DNA of 32,000 nucleotides from Candidatus Heimdallarchaeota archaeon (GCA_030149205.1 JASBSB010000001.1:480001-512000), one strand, 5' to 3'; positions 5 through 10,160 are shown, counted from the first letter of the stretch. Made by a program: numbers and translations. The notes: generated from the letters alone by a model not told the origin.

Positions 5-1468
5 TTATTGAAATAAGGTTGTAATGATTGTACTCGGTGTGAGTGCAAAAAATATGAGGGGAAAAGCTAAGGTGATCAGAGCTAAAATTGCTAATACAAC
101 CTTTGCAGGGGTAGATGGTAACACCTCAATATCATTGGTTGGATCTCTGGTGATGATCCAAATAAATCGACCATAGTAATAGACAGAGATCGCACTTCCA
201 ATCACTAATGCTACCGCAGTAATTAGCCCAATCGATGTGTTCGTGCTAACCACCGCAGTTACCAAAAAGAATTTTCCAACAAAACCTGCAGTCGGAGGTA
301 TGCCAATTAAGGAGAATAAAAAGATCACGAGTGACCAACCCACAACCTTGTCTTTCTTAATAAGCCCTCTAAAGTTCTCAATATGGTCATTCCCAAAGGA
401 GTTCATAACAATTAACACTCCAATTACGAGTCCACCCTTCATAATCACGTTGGCAATCATGTGAGTCATCGCTGCAAACAATGCAAATCCACGCAATTCA
501 GGGGTTGTGGCCTCTGCATAAGCAACCAAGGCAACCGCGATGTACCCTGCATGCGCGATTGAAGAGTAAGCCATCAACCTCATTATTCTATTTTGAATTG
601 AAGCAATTGCATTCCCAAACAGCATAGAAAGGATAGCAAGGGTGGCGATCATCGGCCCCCAAACCCCTACACTTCCAATCAATGCAAACATGAAAACCTG
701 GAACGCAAATGTAAAGGCCATCTTTTTAGACCCTACTGCTAGATAATTTACAACAGTGACAGGTGCACCGGTATAAATATCACTCACCCACCAGTGAAAG
801 GGAATTAAAGCCAGCTTAAATGCGATTCCTCCTACAAGTATGAGTATACCGAGGTTATAGAAATTTGAACCATTTGTTAAGATTAGAGCATCATAAGATA
901 AAGAACCAGTTGCTCCATAAATTAATGAGATTCCATATATTATCAACCCAGAAGATAGAGCGCCTAGGATCACCAGTTTCATAGCAGCCTCTGTAGCCTC
1001 TCTACTTCTCTTGTAATATGCCACCATAGCATATATTGGAATTGTCATTAATTCAAATCCTACGTATAGGGGGATATAATTGGCAGAACTTGCTATTACC
1101 ACCCCTCCCATATTGGAAAGGAGAAGTAATGAACCAAATATACCAAGGTCTTTTTGTACTCTGAAATCCATAGCTGCAGAGAAAACAACAAGAAGTGAAG
1201 CGGAAAGTCCAATTATGGCAAAGATCTGATAAAAGGGATTAAACTTGAATCCAGGTACTATTGTTATCGATGTCATAGAACCTGGTGATAAAGCAACTGC
1301 CACTATTGTGAGGATGAGAGTTGAAAATACAGTGATTATGAAAAATCTCCTGTTAGTATCTGCTTTCTTAGTCACGATATCACCAAGTAAGGAGACAGTA
1401 ACTCCAATAAGTAATATAATACTTGGAGAGAAAGCTTTGAAGAGTTCGGTTATTGCAATAGCCATCAC
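5..1468 (-). CDS. nuoN: NADH:quinone oxidoreductase-like (complex I/Fpo) subunit N
   Basis: Hydrophobic 487-aa ORF with YVGFELMTIP, AFKLALIPFHWWVSDIYTGAP, RLMAYSSIAHAGY and GIPPTAGFVGKF motifs. SD AAGGAGG precedes GTG 1468/ATG 1465. Stop TAA at 5-7, so the gene is complete. Confidence 0.93.
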   Translation of the reverse strand: MMAIAITELFKAFSPSIILLIGVTVSLLGDIVTKKADTNRRFFIITVFSTLILTIVAVALSPGSMTSITIVPGFKFNPFYQIFAIIGLSASLLVVFSAAMDFRVQKDLGIFGSLLLLSNMGGVVIASSANYIPLYVGFELMTIPIYAMVAYYKRSREATEAAMKLVILGALSSGLIIYGISLIYGATGSLSYDALILTNGSNFYNLGILILVGGIAFKLALIPFHWWVSDIYTGAPVTVVNYLAVGSKKMAFTFAFQVFMFALIGSVGVWGPMIATLAILSMLFGNAIASIQNRIMRLMAYSSIAHAGYIAVALVAYAEATTPELRGFALFAAMTHMIANVIMKGGLVIGVLIVMNSFGNDHIENFRGLIKKDKVVGWSLVIFLFSLIGIPPTAGFVGKFFLVTAVVSTNTSIGLITAVALVIGSAISVYYYGRFIWIITRDPTNDIEVLPSTPAKVVLAILALITLAFPLIFFALTPSTIITTLFQ

Positions 1469-1478
1469 TAAATCCTCC

Positions 1479-3032
1479 TTACGGGAAGAAGTTCAACTTA
1501 ACCCACTGATCGAAGATTTTTTGGATGATTCCAGGGAGTACACCGAAGAGCAGTGCAAGAAGTGCTAAAACAAAAACAGGTCCACTTTCCCACCATTTTG
1601 CATCTTCTGCATTCTCTAACTCTTCTGTAACAGTCCCGAAGGCTACTCTTCTAACTGCCCAGAGATAATAACTTGCAGTGACAATTATTGATAAGAGAGC
1701 GATTATAGGAATCCAAACCCAACTTGGCTGTATGAACAATTGTGAGGTAAACAGGGATGAAAATCCAAGGAATTCTGCAACGAAGCCCGCTAAACCTGGA
1801 AGACCGGCTGAAGCAAAGGTTAAAAAGACATAGAGAGCTGTAAGAAATGGTAACTTGTGACCAAGACCCCCAACAATGTCCATATTTCTTGTGTGGTTTT
1901 TGGTATGGTGTTCCACTATACCTGCAACTAAAAACAGACCTGGAGATATTAATCCATGAGCTATCATCATAAACAAGGCTGCATTCAAACCTAAACTATT
2001 GAAAGCTGCAAGACCAAGTAAGACTATTCCCATGTGAGAGATGGAAGAATATGCAATCATTTTCTTCAAGTCTGTCTGTCTTAAAGCAATAAACGCAGGA
2101 TAAATCATGGAAACTGCACCTATTACCCCCATGATTATTCTGCTTGTATCTCCAATTGATGTTGTAAAGAACCCTGTATCAGCAATTAACCAAAAACCAA
2201 TACGGATCAGTCCATATCCACCCATTTTCAACAATAAACCTGCCAAAATAGATGATCCGGGAGAAGGCGCTTGCACATGTGCATCGGGTAACCAGGTATG
2301 AAATGGTACCTGTGGGAACTTTACTATGAAACCTATAAAGACCAACCAGAAGATCAAACTTAATTCATTGACGGATATTTTTCCTGCATTGAAATTGCTT
2401 AGAAGGTTTGCCTTGAGTGACACCATATCAAAGGTGTTGTTTCCGAAGTGATACATGAGTATTAGACCAATCAACATAACCAGTGAGGCTAAATTAGTGT
2501 AGATGAAAAATTTAAAAGCAGCATATCTTCTGTTCTCCCCACCCCACATTATAATGATAAAGAACATTGGAACAAGAACAATTTCCCAGAAGATGTAAAA
2601 TAAAAACAGATCAAGTGAGATAAATGTACCAATCAATCCTGTGAACAGAAATAGATACAAAGCATAGTATATGTCTTCTTTATCGTGAATATAAAAACTT
2701 GAGAAAACAGTCACTAAAAACACTACTTGCGATAGCATCACCAAAGGCATTGACAAACCATCAACCCCTAGATGATAGTTAATTGTAAGATTTCCTGCGG
2801 TAAACCAATTTACGTTAGTTACATAGAGAAATCCTGAGCCGTCATAACTTGGAAGTCCAAAAGTGAAATCTCTGAACCAAAGTATAAAACTAAGAACAGT
2901 GGTAACACTGATTGTTCCCACAGCAGTCCATTTACTGAAGCTTGTTTTATACCGACCTGCGTAGTATGTTGGAATAGACATTAATGCAGGAAGCCAAAGA
3001 ATAATATTCAATAAAATTTCTTCAGGTGTCAT
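1479..3032 (-). CDS. nuoM: Complex I-like subunit M (antiporter-like)
   Basis: LGVDGLSMPL, FYIFWEIVLVPMF, VKFPQVPFHTWLPDAHVQAP, LLKMGGYG, LKKMIAYSSISHMG and LPGLAGFVAEF motifs. Ends 10 nt before nuoN. Confidence 0.95.
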   Translation of the reverse strand: MTPEEILLNIILWLPALMSIPTYYAGRYKTSFSKWTAVGTISVTTVLSFILWFRDFTFGLPSYDGSGFLYVTNVNWFTAGNLTINYHLGVDGLSMPLVMLSQVVFLVTVFSSFYIHDKEDIYYALYLFLFTGLIGTFISLDLFLFYIFWEIVLVPMFFIIIMWGGENRRYAAFKFFIYTNLASLVMLIGLILMYHFGNNTFDMVSLKANLLSNFNAGKISVNELSLIFWLVFIGFIVKFPQVPFHTWLPDAHVQAPSPGSSILAGLLLKMGGYGLIRIGFWLIADTGFFTTSIGDTSRIIMGVIGAVSMIYPAFIALRQTDLKKMIAYSSISHMGIVLLGLAAFNSLGLNAALFMMIAHGLISPGLFLVAGIVEHHTKNHTRNMDIVGGLGHKLPFLTALYVFLTFASAGLPGLAGFVAEFLGFSSLFTSQLFIQPSWVWIPIIALLSIIVTASYYLWAVRRVAFGTVTEELENAEDAKWWESGPVFVLALLALLFGVLPGIIQKIFDQWVKLNFFP

Positions 3033-3211
3033 ATTGTCAAGTGGTCATTGAACTGATGTATTTTAAGGAATACGACAGGATTCTTATTTTGAACATAACT
3101 TTTTGAAAGAAAAGTTGTCAATAACTTATCGGAGACCAGAGAATATAGTTATTTTCAGTGTCCCCTCAATCTCCAAATAAACATACAACTAACTCTTGAA
3201 ATATATAATGT

Positions 3212-3919
3212 TCACTGATTTTTTCTAACGTCTGGATGCTTCCTTAAGTAATATACTTCATGTGTTATCAATAAAAGGTTAATTGCCAAAAGGACAACCC
3301 ATTGTGGATATGACCCAATTAGAGAAAAGAGAAAACTTCTTTCAATACTTGCTACTTCAATTGGGATATTAGGGAATTGATGATCACGGATTGATAAATA
3401 TGAAAATACTCTTGTGTTGTTTTTTAACAAAAGATAAATCGAAAAGTAAAGTTCTAATTCCGCCAAACTTGGACCCTTAAAGGTTAGATTAAAAATAGTA
3501 TATCGGAATTTCAAACTTGTATTCAGCTGATATGGATCAACTATCGTTCCTATAGTTTTATCCCTATTGTTCCCTATCTCTACCAAATAACCCCTTCCTA
3601 TAGAGGACCTGTTATATTCTTTCCAGAAGATTAAACCAGAGGAAGATATTCCTATTTCTTTGAAATTTAGTGAGGTTTTAGTCAAAGAAATATCAAGTGA
3701 AACGAAATAATTGACATGACTTGAAATATAAATGTGATCAGGGTATATGACCTTAGAAATTATCAGTGTAAAATTTGTGTTATTAACTCTTTTATCAACA
3801 AATTTCTCGTGATATTTCGGTTCGAGATTAAGAGTTGGGACTGAGATAAGAAAAGCTATTAGAACCAAAATTATGATAATTAATGCTAGATAAATAGATA
3901 TTATTTGTCTATTATTCAA
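3212..3919 (-). CDS. Hypothetical membrane-anchored surface protein (N- and C-terminal hydrophobic segments, beta-rich middle)
   Basis: 235-aa ORF with TTG start, GAGGT SD at 3931-3935 and TTTATATA box at 3960-3967. Six N-x-S/T sequons. No recognisable family. Confidence 0.65.
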   Translation of the reverse strand: MNNRQIISIYLALIIIILVLIAFLISVPTLNLEPKYHEKFVDKRVNNTNFTLIISKVIYPDHIYISSHVNYFVSLDISLTKTSLNFKEIGISSSGLIFWKEYNRSSIGRGYLVEIGNNRDKTIGTIVDPYQLNTSLKFRYTIFNLTFKGPSLAELELYFSIYLLLKNNTRVFSYLSIRDHQFPNIPIEVASIERSFLFSLIGSYPQWVVLLAINLLLITHEVYYLRKHPDVRKNQ

Positions 3920-3959
3920 TTTTCTGATTTACCTCAATAAATTTGTAAGATAACTAATG

Positions 3960-3967
3960 TATATAAA
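3960..3967 (-). promoter_or_regulatory. Archaeal TATA-like box for the gene between nuoL and nuoM
   Basis: TTTATATA on the minus strand, about 25 nt upstream of a GAGGT SD and about 40 nt upstream of the TTG start. Confidence 0.45.
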
Positions 3968-4156
3968 TGTGCTCTAAATAAGATTGGGTCAGTGCTAACC
4001 AACCGTCAAACGCTAATTGTGAACATTTAATCATGTGGTTAACATTAAAACTGTATCAAATTCTTTTTGGTTCTATTTGAAGATATCCTTCATCAGGTAA
4101 TTCTGTTAAACATACAAACTTTAAGTTAAATTTTGAGTTATTTATAGAAATGTCAT

Positions 4157-6298
4157 CTAGAACAGTTTTAGTTGGTTTGATACTCCGAAAGCAATCAAAA
4201 ATACTGCCAGGGAAACCATCATTAAGGTTGCGTAATTTCTGACGATACCATCCTGCAATCTTCTTCCATATCTAGCTGTGGACCTTGTGAGAGCGGCGAA
4301 GCCATTAACCACTCCATCTATGATATTTTGGTCAAATCTGTCACTTTCCTCAGCTGTCATTAGAGCACCTTCGAATACTATGTCATTTATAATGAGCTTG
4401 TCAATTACATTATAATCAAAAGTTTTGAGTGCTTCAGCAGTGGGCATAGCTACATAATCAACAAACCCGTAGATTGATTTATCAACGTAAAATCTATTGT
4501 TTATGAAGTCTTCCGCCCAAAGCAATTTTTGCCTGATTGCTTGCAATGTGTCAGGATATTTCCAGTAAAACAGCAATGCAGCTAATGCACCAGAAATCGA
4601 GAATAGACTACCAATTAACCAACCTTCAACTTCACCTGCAGTACTTGGATGAACACCAAACAAGTCACCTAATATCTTCTCGAAATTTAGCGATTCAAGT
4701 CCAGGAATGTATCCAATTGAGAACCAGAGCGATTCAAGGATTACAAGGGATGCTACACCAATCAACGGTATTGCCATCAATTTTGAAGAATCTCTTGGGA
4801 TAACCTTCTCCTTATCAAACCTTTCCTCACCGAGGAAGACGACATAGAACATCCTCATTGAATAGAAAGCTGTGATGAATGCGGTAACAATTTCTAACCA
4901 CTGTAAGAAGACTGCACCTTCGACGTTCGAATTTGCGATTCCTAGAATAATTGAATCTTTTGACCAGAAACCACTGAAGGGTGGAATCCCCGCCAGAGCA
5001 ATAAGTCCTATACCCATAGTTATTCCTGTGATCTTCATGTGTCTAAACAACCCACCCATCTCGCGAATATCTTGAGTGTGGTGTAGGTTATGAATGACTG
5101 CTCCTGCACACAAAAATAGTAGTGATTTGAATGTTGCATGTGAGACAATGTGGTAAAACGCTGGGGAAGTAGCCCCCGCACCAATACCTGAAGCAATGTA
5201 CCCCAGTTGGGAAATTGTTGAGAATGCGAGTATTCTTTTGATATCAGTGGAAGTAAGAGCCATTAAAGCACCAAGCAGTGCAGTAATCGCACCTATCCAT
5301 GTGATGACAGTACCAGTTGGGAGGTAGAATCCGGTAAACCAACTCACAGTTGGTAAGGTAGCATGAAAATTGTTAACGTCATAAAATGTCATAAAGTTAC
5401 GAATTAGTAAGAATAAACCTGCTTTTACCATAGTTGATGAATGTAACAATGCTGATACAGGCGTTGGCCCTTCCATGGCCTCTGGTAACCAACCGAACAA
5501 TGGGAACTGTGAGGATTTACCAACAGCACCTATAAAAATCAATAAACTAGGCAGAAGAAAGTCATTCGCAGAGAGCGCTCCTGTATGAACAAGTTCCATT
5601 ATTTTCACATAAGAGACATCTCCACCTGTTAATCGCATGACAGTAAATATTCCCACCATAAAGCCTACATCACCAACTTTGTTGTAGAGAAATGCTTTCA
5701 TTCCTGCAGCACTTGCTGAGGCTTTATGCCAGTAGTATCCAATCAGAAAGTAGCTAGATACCCCAAGTAATTCCCAGAACACAAAACTGGTGATTAGATT
5801 TCCAGCGTATACAAATCCCCACATTGCAGCAGTAAAGAAGTTCATAAATGCAAAAAACCTTGTGATTTCAGGTTCACCGTGCATCATATAGTCTGATGCA
5901 TAGATGTGAATAAAGAGACCAATAACTGCGAGGACAAGACTCATCAGTATACTTAATGGATCAACCATTAATTCCCAGGTCAGCTTTGTTCCTACAATAA
6001 ATGGAACTGATCCATGAATATAGGTAGGACTACCCGAAACAAAGTTCACAAAATACTGTATTGCTAATATAATTGATAGGCCTGAAGAAATCGCAATAGA
6101 TCCAACACCTATAATACTACTAAATTTTGGATTAACCTCTCTTCCCTTGTAGATCTCTAAATATCTCCAGAATATCAAGAATACAGCAGCCAACATAGGA
6201 ATGAATATTGTCCAAGCTGCGATTACTATCATATTGTCAACAGAGACATTTCCAGTGAATGCCTCAAGAATTTTTAGTGTGGTTGGAGCTTCTGCCAT
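4157..6298 (-). CDS. nuoL: Complex I-like subunit L with extended lateral helix
   Basis: FVFWELLGVSSYFLIGY, GKSSQFPLFGWLPEAMEGPTPVSALLHSSTMVKAG, ILAFSTISQLGY, HATFKSLLFL and GIPPFSGFWSKD motifs, plus C-terminal LQDGIVRNY. GGAGGT SD. Confidence 0.95.
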   Translation of the reverse strand: MAEAPTTLKILEAFTGNVSVDNMIVIAAWTIFIPMLAAVFLIFWRYLEIYKGREVNPKFSSIIGVGSIAISSGLSIILAIQYFVNFVSGSPTYIHGSVPFIVGTKLTWELMVDPLSILMSLVLAVIGLFIHIYASDYMMHGEPEITRFFAFMNFFTAAMWGFVYAGNLITSFVFWELLGVSSYFLIGYYWHKASASAAGMKAFLYNKVGDVGFMVGIFTVMRLTGGDVSYVKIMELVHTGALSANDFLLPSLLIFIGAVGKSSQFPLFGWLPEAMEGPTPVSALLHSSTMVKAGLFLLIRNFMTFYDVNNFHATLPTVSWFTGFYLPTGTVITWIGAITALLGALMALTSTDIKRILAFSTISQLGYIASGIGAGATSPAFYHIVSHATFKSLLFLCAGAVIHNLHHTQDIREMGGLFRHMKITGITMGIGLIALAGIPPFSGFWSKDSIILGIANSNVEGAVFLQWLEIVTAFITAFYSMRMFYVVFLGEERFDKEKVIPRDSSKLMAIPLIGVASLVILESLWFSIGYIPGLESLNFEKILGDLFGVHPSTAGEVEGWLIGSLFSISGALAALLFYWKYPDTLQAIRQKLLWAEDFINNRFYVDKSIYGFVDYVAMPTAEALKTFDYNVIDKLIINDIVFEGALMTAEESDRFDQNIIDGVVNGFAALTRSTARYGRRLQDGIVRNYATLMMVSLAVFLIAFGVSNQLKLF

Positions 6299-6300
6299 AA

Positions 6301-6651
6301 TTAATCAACCTCCGTATTTTCAGCAAGAGAGAAGATATCTAAGACAGATATTTCTCCAAAGTTTCTGTATAATGAAATAAAAATTGCTAATGCAATTGCT
6401 GCTTCTGCAGCGGCAATTGCTACTACAATCATTGCAAACGCCCAGCCAAGATATTGATCACTAACAGCGGCATTAGAAGCTGCTGTAGATCTCAAATAGC
6501 TGTTGAAAGCTACAAAGTTGATGTTTGCTGAATTTAAGATAAGTTCAATTGAGAAAAGCAATCGAACAGCGCTTCTTTGGGTAAGAATACCAAGTATTCC
6601 TACTGAGAATAATACCATGGATAAAGCAACAAAATATTCTAAAGGTATCAT
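6301..6651 (-). CDS. nuoK: Complex I-like subunit K
   Basis: SIELILNSANINFV and AIAAAEAAIALA, with both conserved glutamates. ATGA overlap with nuoJ. Confidence 0.93.
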   Translation of the reverse strand: MIPLEYFVALSMVLFSVGILGILTQRSAVRLLFSIELILNSANINFVAFNSYLRSTAASNAAVSDQYLGWAFAMIVVAIAAAEAAIALAIFISLYRNFGEISVLDIFSLAENTEVD

Positions 6652-7214
6652 GTGGTAGTTTCCTCCGGATATAATTTGGGTTTTTCTTCGTAATCGTCTG
6701 AGTCATCTGACATTGCCAACTTTACCGAACCCAGAAGGGCAGCTAAGAATAGAGCGGATAAGAAGGGAAGAATAAATGCGAGCCCAAAATTTTCCTGCCA
6801 AATGTTGTGGAAGAACTGTTCTAACAGTGTGTTCCCATTGTTTGTTGTAAAGATGTTTCCGGTGCTCGCTGGGATTTGGGCGACTAGAGTCCCCAACAGA
6901 ACCAATAACAGAACTCCAGCAACAATAACTGGCATCACAAGATTGCTGTTAAAAAATTCGAAATTGTCCTCTGTGTAACTGGTTAACCTTCCAGCGAAAA
7001 GTAATAACACAGCTATACCTCCAGAATAAACACTTAGCTGTATAACCCAAAGAAATTCTGAATTTGCAAATAGAAAGACATTAGCCACTCCAATAAGCGT
7101 AAGAATCAGAAAAAGGGCGCTTCGGATAACTGTTCTAGAGTAAAGAACACCTATCCCCATTAACACTGTGTATATTGCATTCAAAACAAATAAAATCAAT
7201 AAGTAATCTACCAT
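6648..7214 (-). CDS. nuoJ: Complex I-like subunit J
   Basis: VIRSALFL, SEFLWVIQLSVYSGGIAVLLLF and C-terminal F..LSALFLAALLGSV helix. Lies between nuoH and nuoK. Confidence 0.9.
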   Translation of the reverse strand: MVDYLLILFVLNAIYTVLMGIGVLYSRTVIRSALFLILTLIGVANVFLFANSEFLWVIQLSVYSGGIAVLLLFAGRLTSYTEDNFEFFNSNLVMPVIVAGVLLLVLLGTLVAQIPASTGNIFTTNNGNTLLEQFFHNIWQENFGLAFILPFLSALFLAALLGSVKLAMSDDSDDYEEKPKLYPEETTT

Positions 7215-7218
7215 ATTT

Positions 7219-8334
7219 TCACCCCAACACTCCTGTTGACCATATCATAATAAACGATCCAAAAATACTCGCTAAGAGTAATTGTTTCCAACCGAAGCTT
7301 AACAACTGATCTATTCTCATTCTTGGAAAAGCGGTTCGAAAAGTTGTAGCTACATAAATAAAGAAATATGCTTTGACAGTGACTGTGATGAATTGGATCC
7401 ATAAGTTGCTTCGAAGCTCATATAACCAGGTTGGCCAAGTAAAAATCACACCACCATTAAAATTGTAAATTGCGTTTCCAAATGGCCAGAAGTCAAATCC
7501 ACCAAAGAACAAGAAGATAAACAAAAGGGAGTTTACTGTAAGATGAACATATTCAGTCATCATAATTAACGCGTATCTCCATCCTGAGAACTCTGTTCTT
7601 GGTCCCATTACTAACTCTGCTTCAGCTTCTGGAATATCAAAGGGAACTCTCTCGGTTTCGGCAAGTCCTGCAATATAAAATACAAAGGCTGCAATTAACC
7701 CACCAATTCCAAATCCACTAAATAGAAACCAGCCAGCATGCATTTGATAAAGAGCTATGTCATTTAATGAGAAGGAATTTACAATTGCGATAACTCCTAA
7801 AACAGAGATGAACATTGGGATCTCATAAGCCAGTAATTGACCTGCTGCTCGAAATCCACCTATGAGTGCATATTTTGAGTTACTTGCCCATCCACCAATA
7901 AACATGGCTGGGGGAACAATAGAAAATATTGCGAAAACATAAAGTACACCTATTGTTAAATCTGCACCCAATACTCCATTTGCAAAGGGTAGAGGTACAA
8001 ATGCCATTATAGAGCTAACTCCTATGAAAAAGATTGCCATAAAGAATCCAAGTGAATCAGCCGTCTTTGGCATAGTATCTTCTTTAAGTACAAGTTTTAG
8101 AAGGTCTGCAGGTATCTGTAATATACCTCGCCATCCAACATAAACTGGACCTCTTCTACCCTGTTGACGGGCCATAACCTTTCTTTCTACATAAGGCATG
8201 ATTAATTGATTAATCATAATATAGTTTGCCAGTAGAAAGGTTCCCAAGGCTATTGCAACAACATCTGGAATTGTGATCTGAATTCCAAGAATATTAAAGG
8301 TTCCTGATAGGAAAGGGTTTACTGGTGATGCCAT
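7219..8334 (-). CDS. nuoH: Complex I-like subunit H
   Basis: ERKVMARQQGRRGP..VGWRGILQIPADLLKLVLKED, SNSKYALIGGFRA, ETERVPFDIPEAEAELV and PRMRIDQL motifs. Confidence 0.95.
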   Translation of the reverse strand: MASPVNPFLSGTFNILGIQITIPDVVAIALGTFLLANYIMINQLIMPYVERKVMARQQGRRGPVYVGWRGILQIPADLLKLVLKEDTMPKTADSLGFFMAIFFIGVSSIMAFVPLPFANGVLGADLTIGVLYVFAIFSIVPPAMFIGGWASNSKYALIGGFRAAGQLLAYEIPMFISVLGVIAIVNSFSLNDIALYQMHAGWFLFSGFGIGGLIAAFVFYIAGLAETERVPFDIPEAEAELVMGPRTEFSGWRYALIMMTEYVHLTVNSLLFIFLFFGGFDFWPFGNAIYNFNGGVIFTWPTWLYELRSNLWIQFITVTVKAYFFIYVATTFRTAFPRMRIDQLLSFGWKQLLLASIFGSFIMIWSTGVLG

Positions 8335-8441: not shown

Positions 8442-8714
8442 CTATTTGGTTCGCATTATAATATGATATCCAAATTTGGTCTTTATTGGCTCTGAAATTT
8501 GGTTTACGTCCAATTCAAATGCCGCTTTTTCAAATTCTTTCACCATTTGACCTCTCCCGAACTCACCTAAATCACCACCCCTCTTTTTGCTGGGGCAGGT
8601 GGAATACTGTTTTGCAAGTTCAGCGAAGTTTTTTAGATTTACCTGGTCTTTTATTTTCAGGGCTTGAGATTGTTTTTCAACGAGGATATGAGAGGTTCGA
8701 ATCTTATTTGCCAT
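8442..8714 (-). CDS. ppiC: Single-domain parvulin-type peptidyl-prolyl isomerase
   Basis: [42 protein letters not shown] and KFGYHII motifs. Likely start ATG 8714 (90 aa); the ORF track extends to 8747. Confidence 0.92.
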
Positions 8715-8813
8715 ATAATTAATCTGAATTCTATGATATTTATGCATTACTTCAAGAGACTATTTTAGCCACATCAAACTAATTATAACATATAAATACA
8801 GAAACGATTCAGG

Positions 8814-9536
8814 ATGACAGAGCTTGTTTATTATGAAAACCAGTATCTTAAAAAGCTTAATGCAACCATCACACAGGTCAAAGGGAATGAAATTGTCTTA
8901 GACAAAACTATCTTCTTTGGAAGGTCTTGTGGGGTAAAACCAGATCGAGGAGTTATTATAGCTGGTAACCAAAAATATAACATTGTAGATATAAAAAAGG
9001 AAGGTGACTCCATTTTTCATGTAACTGATAATCCAATTGATATTGGTCTTGTAGGGAAGGAGGCAGAACTTCAGATTGAGTGGCCCAGAAGATACGCCAT
9101 GATGAAGCTACACACCACACTTCATATAGTGTCAGGGCTGATTTGGCAGAAATACCATGTTTTGGTCACTGGTAGTGATATTACTCCTGAAAAAGCCAGT
9201 ATTTACTTTGATTTTGATCGAAATCTATCAAAAGAGGAATTAGAAGAACTAACAACAGAGGTCAACAGAGTTATTATGGAGGATCATAACACCTACTCAG
9301 AGGAAATGGACATAGAGGAGGCAGAAAACACACCAGGGATAATTCGCTCAAAAACCAATATTCTCCCAGACGGACTTAAAGTTGTCAGGATAATGAATAT
9401 TGGAACTGTTGACAGACAAGCTGACGGTGGAATTCACGTCAAATCTACGAAAGAACTTGGGAAATTTAAAATTACAAAGCAGAAAAATAAGGGCAAAGGA
9501 AACAGAAAACTTGAAGTTAGGTTGTTGGATGAATGA
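8814..9536 (+). CDS. alaX: AlaX-M family trans-editing (Ser/Gly-tRNA(Ala) deacylase) protein
   Basis: N-terminal AlaRS editing-like domain, W.RRY.MMKLHTTLH (HxxxH) and QADGGIHV. 240 aa fits AlaX-M size. Confidence 0.88.
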   Translation: MTELVYYENQYLKKLNATITQVKGNEIVLDKTIFFGRSCGVKPDRGVIIAGNQKYNIVDIKKEGDSIFHVTDNPIDIGLVGKEAELQIEWPRRYAMMKLHTTLHIVSGLIWQKYHVLVTGSDITPEKASIYFDFDRNLSKEELEELTTEVNRVIMEDHNTYSEEMDIEEAENTPGIIRSKTNILPDGLKVVRIMNIGTVDRQADGGIHVKSTKELGKFKITKQKNKGKGNRKLEVRLLDE

Positions 9537-9605
9537 ATTGGCGAAATTGGAATAGTTATCGGTTATTTATATACAACCTTAGATGAACTTCTGAAGTGCA
9601 GACAA

Positions 9606-10160
9606 TTACAAGTTAAACATCGATTCAGCCTGATTAAATATTTTTTTTAAAGCTGGGTGAGTGATATATTTCTTAGCTGTTATCAAGAAATCATACGTCC
9701 TTTCATCTCGGGAACTTTGGTAGTATACTAAAGCTTGTAACACCATTTCAAGTTTATCGATCTGCTGTACTAAACGTGCTTCGGGTGAAGATTTGTTAAG
9801 ATATTCAACTATAAGTTGTTGTAATGAAATTGAGGTCGTAATAGACTCAGGGAGAATCTTATTGAGTGAGTTCAATTCGAGTTTATCCTTATCTGCCTTT
9901 AGTTTTAAATTCTGTTGTCCAGAGGTCTCCCAAACAACATCACCGATTTCAACTTCTGCAAGATCGTGTAAAACTGCCAGTTGTAAGAGTTTACACTGAT
10001 CCAATCCATCAAACTCATCTTTGAGTAGGAGAATCAATAATGTCATCATGTAAGAGTGATCAGAAACACTTTCAACAGAAGTCAACCCAATACGTCTCCA
10101 ACCTTCGCGTTTCACATTTTTTATAGAATACAAATTTAAAATAGCATCAAGCTTACGCAT
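9606..10160 (-). CDS. HD-domain hydrolase (YfbR/HDDC2-like 5'-deoxynucleotidase)
   Basis: KNVKREGW, ESVSDHSY, HDLAE..GD and DKLEM..QA..Y motifs. Confidence 0.85.
   Translation of the reverse strand: MRKLDAILNLYSIKNVKREGWRRIGLTSVESVSDHSYMMTLLILLLKDEFDGLDQCKLLQLAVLHDLAEVEIGDVVWETSGQQNLKLKADKDKLELNSLNKILPESITTSISLQQLIVEYLNKSSPEARLVQQIDKLEMVLQALVYYQSSRDERTYDFLITAKKYITHPALKKIFNQAESMFNL

Follow-up and report, generated by a model that had tools for sequence, protein, structure and literature searches.

A two-module NuoL strap helix beside a single nuoM in a Heimdallarchaeota genome

Introduction

In the 2M type of complex I described by Chadwick et al. (2018), the lateral helix of the antiporter-like subunit NuoL carries an insertion of about 26 amino acids, as summarized in later papers (PMC9040806, PMC6606698); the criteria for this type used below were likewise taken from papers that cite the original description (PMC6606698, PMC9040806, PMC7300363, PMC9038741). 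In genome papers, such a lengthened helix is taken as the mark of a 2M complex that pumps more protons per electron. Here we analyze the nuoL gene in a stretch of 32,000 nucleotides from a Candidatus Heimdallarchaeota archaeon (GCA_030149205.1, JASBSB010000001.1:480001-512000; the whole stretch is referred to as the window, and positions are counted from its first letter), in which this mark stands without an extra pump gene, and more cleanly so than in the bacterial cases. A sequence-only reading of the window had proposed that the archaeon has, or had, a 2M-type complex whose second antiporter gene was relocated, or was lost at the disrupted junction between nuoL and nuoM.

The closest described cases are Complex_I_1 and Complex_I_2 of Ca. 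Manganitrophaceae, which have an insertion of the 26-aa type and no extra NuoM; Yu et al. (2022; PMC9040806) found this mismatch curious, and proposed either a capacity for extra pumps or a transition toward or away from them. In E. coli, the helix contacts NuoM at a kink formed by D563-P564-L565-N566, and insertions of 6-7 residues at several sites of the helix are tolerated by the complex (Belevich et al., PMC3274701).

We are highly confident of the descriptive part of our result, namely that the additional stretch in this NuoL is an old duplicate of a helix module, that nuoL, nuoM, and nuoN are each present in a single copy, and that this combination is the conserved state of a class. As to how the complex is built, we give a probability of roughly one half to a complex with three pumps (L, M, and N) and a longer strap.

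An extra module in the lateral helix of NuoL

The gene and the parts of its C-terminal extension are as follows, all on the minus strand of the window:

4157-6298, minus: nuoL, 713 aa (TIGR01974, PF00662, and PF00361)
4256-4555, minus: strap helix HL, residues 582-681, as predicted by AlphaFold2 (AF2)
4481-4483, minus: Asp606 of FYVD, the NuoL-side anchor motif, aligned with E. coli D542
4337-4420, minus: module 1 (the extra one), residues 627-654, FDYNVIDK..., exactly 28 codons, an insertion relative to E. coli
4253-4336, minus: module 2, residues 655-682, FDQNIIDGVVNG..., which aligns to the single module of 8e9g_L and 6hum_F
4232-4255, minus: turn motif Q-x-G-x4-Y (QDGIVRNY) ahead of the last transmembrane (TM) helix, recognized by its conservation
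4163-4243, minus: terminal TM helix, residues 686-712 (AF2)

The product scores 475.2 bits against TIGR01974 (NF005141), above the cut-off of 407.5, contains the Proton_antipo_N (PF00662, E = 3e-13) and Proton_antipo_M (PF00361, E = 5e-70) domains, and has the gene context of its subfamily, with nuoK on one side and nuoM and nuoN on the other. From Asp606 to Tyr689 of GIVRNY (codon 4232-4234) its helix region spans 84 residues, both ends included, vs. 53 in the annotated record of E. coli K-12 (D542-Y594), which is an excess of 31 residues over E. coli and of 27 over the usual one-module class. In the alignment with E. coli, the excess forms a single block at the position of module 1. The sequence-only reading had located the FYVD Asp, the GIVRNY Tyr, and the FDYNVIDK unit exactly, and its figure of 52-54 aa for the span in E. 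coli NuoL and T. thermophilus Nqo12 agrees with the E. coli record; it was right about the lengthening and one short in the count, which it gave as 83 codons.

It had also read the unit as occurring twice, FDYNVIDK at residue 627 being followed by FDQNIIDG at residue 655, and this is borne out by the alignment score of module 1 against module 2, which was reached in 8 of 5000 shuffles. In three orthologues from the same genus, where the two units are more alike, none of 5000 shuffles reached the respective score. Further, both halves of a two-module helix profile match the one module of the solved NuoL/NdhF chains (none of the solved chains in this comparison has more than one), so that modules 1 and 2 are homologous. 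Module 2 is the counterpart of the single module of an ordinary NuoL and corresponds to the E. coli kink. In E. coli the helix touches NuoM through this module, of which the 28-codon unit is an old tandem duplicate. The likeness to the 2M insertion noticed earlier is real in position and in size (~26 aa).

An AF2 model of NuoL, built from an alignment of 114 sequences, has a mean predicted local distance difference test (pLDDT) score of 89.4, with values of about 70-90 in the strap region. Its C-terminal extension is complete: a TM helix leads into the long amphipathic lateral helix, and a terminal TM helix closes it; the helices are at residues 557-580, 582-591, 593-600, 602-681 (80 residues without a break), and 686-712. 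The extra module lengthens the predicted continuous helix by about 40 Å over an ordinary one. Its two ends are strongly conserved: among the 114 NuoLs, which include all helix classes, the Asp column of FYVD is nearly invariant, G684 and Y689 occur without exception, and Q682 is conserved in at least 90%. When residues 560-713 alone were used as the query, the homologue search returned 13 weak matches that share few exact words, and no close relatives.

One nuoM in the whole genome

The membrane-arm genes in the window are arranged on the minus strand in the order nuoH-nuoJ-nuoK-nuoL-(235-aa open reading frame)-nuoM-nuoN:

7219-8334, minus: nuoH (PF00146)
6648-7214, minus: nuoJ (PF00499)
6301-6651, minus: nuoK (PF00420)
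3212-3919, minus: inserted open reading frame (ORF) of 235 aa that separates nuoL from nuoM, with a hydrophobic stretch close to either end
1479-3032, minus: nuoM, 517 aa, the sole M-type gene of the genome (TIGR01972, 435 bits)
5-1468, minus: nuoN, 487 aa, with TIGR01770 as its best match, clustering with NuoN in the tree

The score of NuoN on TIGR01770 (302 bits) is under the cut-off of that model (332.6 bits). As the sequence-only reading had it, only one nuoM is in view, since the genes at 1479-3032 and 5-1468 encode NuoM and NuoN, respectively.

The genome (3.3 Mb in 12 contigs) is 93.5% complete, and a gene is indeed inserted between L and M, both of which would be compatible with a second antiporter gene that lies elsewhere, relocated or unassembled, or that was recently lost where L and M became separated. 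However, a PF00361 search of the whole genome recovered only L, M, and N and no fourth gene, and a phmmer search of all its ORFs with the L, M, and N proteins of E. coli, of the related genome G015, and of the archaeon itself returned the same three and no second nuoM; four other genomes of the same family (G001, G002, G004, and G008) also have only three antiporter-like genes each. A tblastn search of the L-M spacer found no nuoM remnant, the best match being 15 residues long with E = 3.3, and in G002, from the same genus, L adjoins M directly next to the same two-module helix, again with one M. The genome is without a second nuoM, and the L-M junction is not a place where one was lost, so that neither fate proposed for the missing gene in the sequence-only reading holds, and we consider an overlooked or recently lost antiporter gene very improbable.

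Its complex I genes are present in one copy each (nuoA, B, C, D, H, I, J, K, L, M, and N) and are distributed over four loci (nuoA-C-D, nuoB, nuoI, and nuoH-J-K-L-M-N), those other than the one at 5-8334 of the window being C8:220946-222946, C2:228163-228903, and C2:35697-36311. With E. coli NuoE, NuoF, and NuoG as queries, no ORF of the genome was found at E <= 1e-3. The nuoH-J-K genes are the first genes of the membrane-arm operon. Upstream of nuoH are a small PPIC-type peptidyl-prolyl isomerase (8442-8747, minus), an AlaX-like tRNA-editing protein (8814-9536, plus), and a protein resembling HD-domain 5'-nucleotidases (9606-10160, minus), and no peripheral-arm genes precede nuoH at this locus, where 8442-10160 is occupied by these other genes.

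The 235-aa ORF, which is flanked by gaps of 237 and 179 bp, is matched by no Pfam or NCBIfam model; it is an insertion particular to this species and does not belong to the conserved operon. We considered it as a new subunit filling a gap in the complex, and rejected it because it has at most two hydrophobic stretches, cannot be placed in a family, and is missing in relatives that share the helix. The nuoL-nuoM junction (3033-4156 of the window) is an insertion hotspot in the genus: G001 has a 273-aa ORF on the opposite strand at this place (L039:5742-6563), and in G003 it is occupied by three other genes, one of them for a MarR-type regulator (L040:7657-12023).

Relatives within the archaeal class

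We compared 83 species genomes of the class. In the family of the archaeon (f1) and its sister family f4, a separate H-J-K-L-M-N operon contains one M, and NuoL has a two-module helix with a distance of ~81 between its two anchors; two modules with a single nuoM are the conserved state of both. The 2M complex proposed in the sequence-only reading does not agree with this distribution, as two whole families with one M carry this NuoL and no second antiporter gene was found in genomes that have it. In family f5, a single A-B-C-D-H-I-J-K-L-M-N cluster contains one M, and NuoL (~760 aa) has three modules, its anchor distance being 105-106 vs. 81 here. The closed 4.9-Mb genome G057 of f5 (L144:7261-9534) has three modules, and its PF00361 genes are only L, M, and N. 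Family f5 comprises 22 species with genomes of 3-6 Mb (L046-L051 and L144), in which nuoN is always followed by a gene of 405-410 aa; this was considered as an extra membrane subunit and discarded, as it encodes a flavoprotein of the geranylgeranyl-reductase type.

A true 2M cluster is found in the closed genome G015 of family f2 (L035:6184-17433), with a 676-aa NuoL, a two-module helix, and the gene order J-K-B-C-D-H-I-M-L-M-N-A, which is unusual. The rest of f2 commonly has a short complex, consisting of an L-like subunit without a module and one antiporter-like partner. In this short system (G020, L145:7374-17243; also L021-L033), the H-J-K genes accompany an L-like protein of ~600 aa with ~27 residues between the anchor and the last TM helix, and B-I-D-C genes are divergently arranged beside it. 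Another archaeal locus, L143:5870-12977 (GCA_964347045.1), has two M-like genes followed by L, M, and N, with a three-module helix, and is a candidate for a five-pump complex I outside Ca. Manganitrophaceae.

This distribution, together with the conservation of module 1, bears on whether the extra module is a relic, left without function when a true 2M ancestor lost its second nuoM. Such a history has some appeal, because G015 is a true 2M genome (M-L-M-N, two modules) of the same order and its NuoL group is sister to the f1+f4 two-module clade (support 0.73; the clade itself has 0.98) in the NuoL core tree, in which two-module sequences surround the three-module f5 proteins. In the tree of M and N proteins, however, the NuoM of the archaeon is the orthologue of the second M of G015 (M2), and the first one (M1), which is basal to all M sequences and hence no recent duplicate, occurs only in that lineage among those sampled. 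Nothing therefore indicates that the lineage of our archaeon once had M1, and a gain of this deep-branching gene in the G015 lineage is more parsimonious than its repeated loss, although there may have been a 2M ancestor in deep time.

The conservation of module 1 also contradicts decay. Among 14 members of the f1/f4 clade, its mean pairwise identity is 0.37, compared with 0.40 in module 2, 0.38 in the last TM helix, and 0.25 in the first part of the helix, and in both families module 1 varies in length by no more than one residue. Being as strongly conserved as its surroundings in the helix, the extra module is no relic in decay, and its identity values and near-lack of indels argue that it is under selection. 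The same state of two modules and one M is found in many bacterial phyla. A relic, or the neutral duplication that the sequence-only reading had kept as a fallback, fits these observations poorly, and we regard it as improbable.

In sequence, module 1 of the clade is a 28-residue variant of its own (xD-x-x-I-I-D-x-x-I-I-D...), which no longer matches the generic module profile, the score in our archaeon being under 0 bits. In G001-G003 (L039, L040, and L041), module 1 has 27 residues and is far closer to module 2 than in our archaeon, which retains the family's 28-residue variant; intragenic homogenization could account for this likeness.

Module number and pump genes in bacteria

The wider sample consisted of 245 NuoLs, namely 150 representatives of an exhaustive search, 80 named genome loci picked without regard to helix length, and relatives. 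The helix class was assigned from the distance between the L-anchor profile and the terminal-turn profile, which were searched separately:

One-module class: anchor distance 50-55, 134 NuoLs
Two-module class: anchor distance 78-91, 91 NuoLs, including the present one at 81
Three-module class: anchor distance 105-107, 12 NuoLs

The Q-x-G-x4-Y motif is present in all three classes (114/134, 84/91, and 12/12, respectively). All 48 one-module named clusters with enough flanking sequence contain exactly M plus N; the proteobacterial NuoLs L112 and L120 have one module. Eleven of the 15 two-module named clusters are clearly L-M-N, three are ambiguous due to split or fused ORFs, and one is L-M-M-N. 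At the level of whole genomes, a Zixibacteria and an Acidimicrobiia genome each have two L-M-N triplets and no orphan M, and a Binatia genome has two L-M-N triplets plus a further antiporter-like pair (815 and 504 aa), which is putatively Mrp-like judging from its sizes alone. The three-module bacterial clusters L140 and L141 are plain L-M-N.

Module number is thus quantized but uncoupled from the number of pump genes, and two modules with one nuoM are the usual state of clusters that lack the NADH module in many bacterial phyla, with examples in Ignavibacteria, Acidobacteria/Terriglobia, and Acidimicrobiia. Because this state is conserved in its own lineage and usual in many bacteria, the locus in the window is an ordinary member of the class.

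Two possible builds: three pumps with a longer strap, or one NuoM used twice

The complex would, in the reading to which we give about even odds, contain three pumps, and the extra module would be a selected structural part of the strap that adds about 40 Å. The strap and its terminal anchor might then pass NuoN toward the end of NuoK/J/A and NuoH and clamp more of the membrane arm; alternatively, the surplus helix might bulge along the cytoplasmic face. A lengthened strap may also have been required before some lineages could acquire genuine additional M subunits.

The other reading that has to be weighed treats the helix as a ruler, such that the single NuoM is built in twice (L-M-M-N), giving four pumps from three genes. 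The three-module sister family would then install NuoM three times, and lineages with two nuoM genes would have arisen by later duplication or acquisition, with one of the copies replaced by a paralogue. A good part of the evidence leans this way and thereby counts against three pumps. The length steps are exact, at about 26-28 residues, which as an alpha helix is approximately the width of one antiporter, and the duplicated unit is the very kink module that contacts NuoM. Both helix ends are alike in all classes, which is most simply explained if they dock at the same points, and the 80-residue strap helix is predicted by AF2 to be straight and continuous, with no hairpin. In the clusters sampled, extra M genes (in G015, L116, and L143) always occur with a lengthened helix and in none of the 48 one-module clusters; this rule is one-sided, since a lengthened helix is mostly found without an extra M. 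No nuoEFG are present in the locus in 13 of the 15 two-module named clusters, as one would predict were an additional pump paid for by a larger driving force. In the bacterial single-M clusters, every module holds a strong shared consensus (20-38 bits each), making near-perfect repeats, whereas the module motifs are degenerate in the true multi-M clusters G015, L116, and L143. The geometry of the three-pump complex is itself hypothetical, the solved structures being all one-module. Taken together, the step size, the conserved ends, the straight helix, the extra-M rule, and the absence of nuoEFG favor a body of the size of M under the helix.

Two points from the relatives are also in line with a reused NuoM. 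The Heimdall-type L-like subunit that has one antiporter partner has no module, and M1 of G015, being basal among the M sequences, is not a lost paralogue of the archaeon's own lineage, so that the doubling of the helix seems to precede the second gene. A complex prediction with two copies of NuoM (residues 6-505, 19-row alignment) gave scores of 0.00 and 0.00 and carries no weight either way.

We nevertheless favor three pumps with a longer strap, because module number varies between related families while their pump genes stay the same, because module 1 differs from module 2 despite the single M, and because E. coli tolerates small insertions in the helix. With two modules in f1 and f4, three in f5, and unchanged pump genes, a reused NuoM would imply different H+/e- ratios in relatives. 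Similarly, identical docking sites would not predict the divergence of module 1 from the generic profile in this clade. The use of one antiporter subunit twice also lacks a known precedent, as we know of no solved member of the complex I/Mrp/Mbh superfamily that has one antiporter-like subunit twice in line. On balance, a NuoM built in twice is unlikely here, if by no means negligible.

The larger scheme, in which NuoM is installed twice here and thrice in the three-module sister family and the 2M clusters are a later stage, we consider doubtful. If it were true, Asgard archaea and many bacteria would run a four- or five-pump complex I from three pump genes.

Implications

Within one archaeal class, the modules of NuoL or its L-like relative number zero, two, or three, and pump-gene counts track them only in some clusters. 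As module count and pump genes are mismatched in this way, bioenergetic inference from helix length alone is unsafe, and a long helix is by itself no sign of a hidden pump; this caution includes Asgard archaea near the origin of eukaryotes. The class with a lengthened helix, one nuoM, and no NADH module is widespread and little described, and the present genome adds little to its extent. Its main additions are a very clean genome-wide count of pump genes and a graded series of modules within one archaeal class. The structural question that the class raises is what occupies the extra 40 or 80 Å under the helix.

Comparison with known systems

As far as 2M complex I is characterized in the papers that cite its description, the NuoL analyzed here resembles the 2M type in being longer by one module at the same site of the helix and in the absence of nuoEFG. 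It differs in that neither the cluster nor the rest of the genome contains the second nuoM that defines the type, and in that its extra module has 28 residues and is a clade-specific sequence variant.

The solved NuoL, Nqo12, ND5, and NdhF chains (3rko_L, 4he8_L, 8e9g_L, 6hum_F, and 8qby_L) share with it the 14-helix antiporter core, the L-anchor motif, a conserved module, the QxGxxxxY turn, and the terminal TM helix. All of them are single-module, unlike the two-module protein of the archaeon.

Like Complex_I_1 and Complex_I_2 of Ca. Manganitrophaceae, the archaeon combines the helix insertion with the absence of an extra NuoM, and it belongs with the single-nuoM clusters that have a lengthened helix and no NADH module, having two modules, exactly one nuoM and one nuoN, and no nuoE, nuoF, or nuoG. 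Unlike our archaeon, however, the genomes of Ca. Manganitrophaceae have further clusters with extra NuoM genes, which could be shared in principle; because L, M, and N are the only such genes that the archaeon has in total, borrowing from another cluster is excluded here. The three-module NuoLs of family f5 and of L140 and L141 similarly combine a tandem repeat of the module with plain L-M-N and no nuoEFG, and have one module more (105-106 vs. 81).

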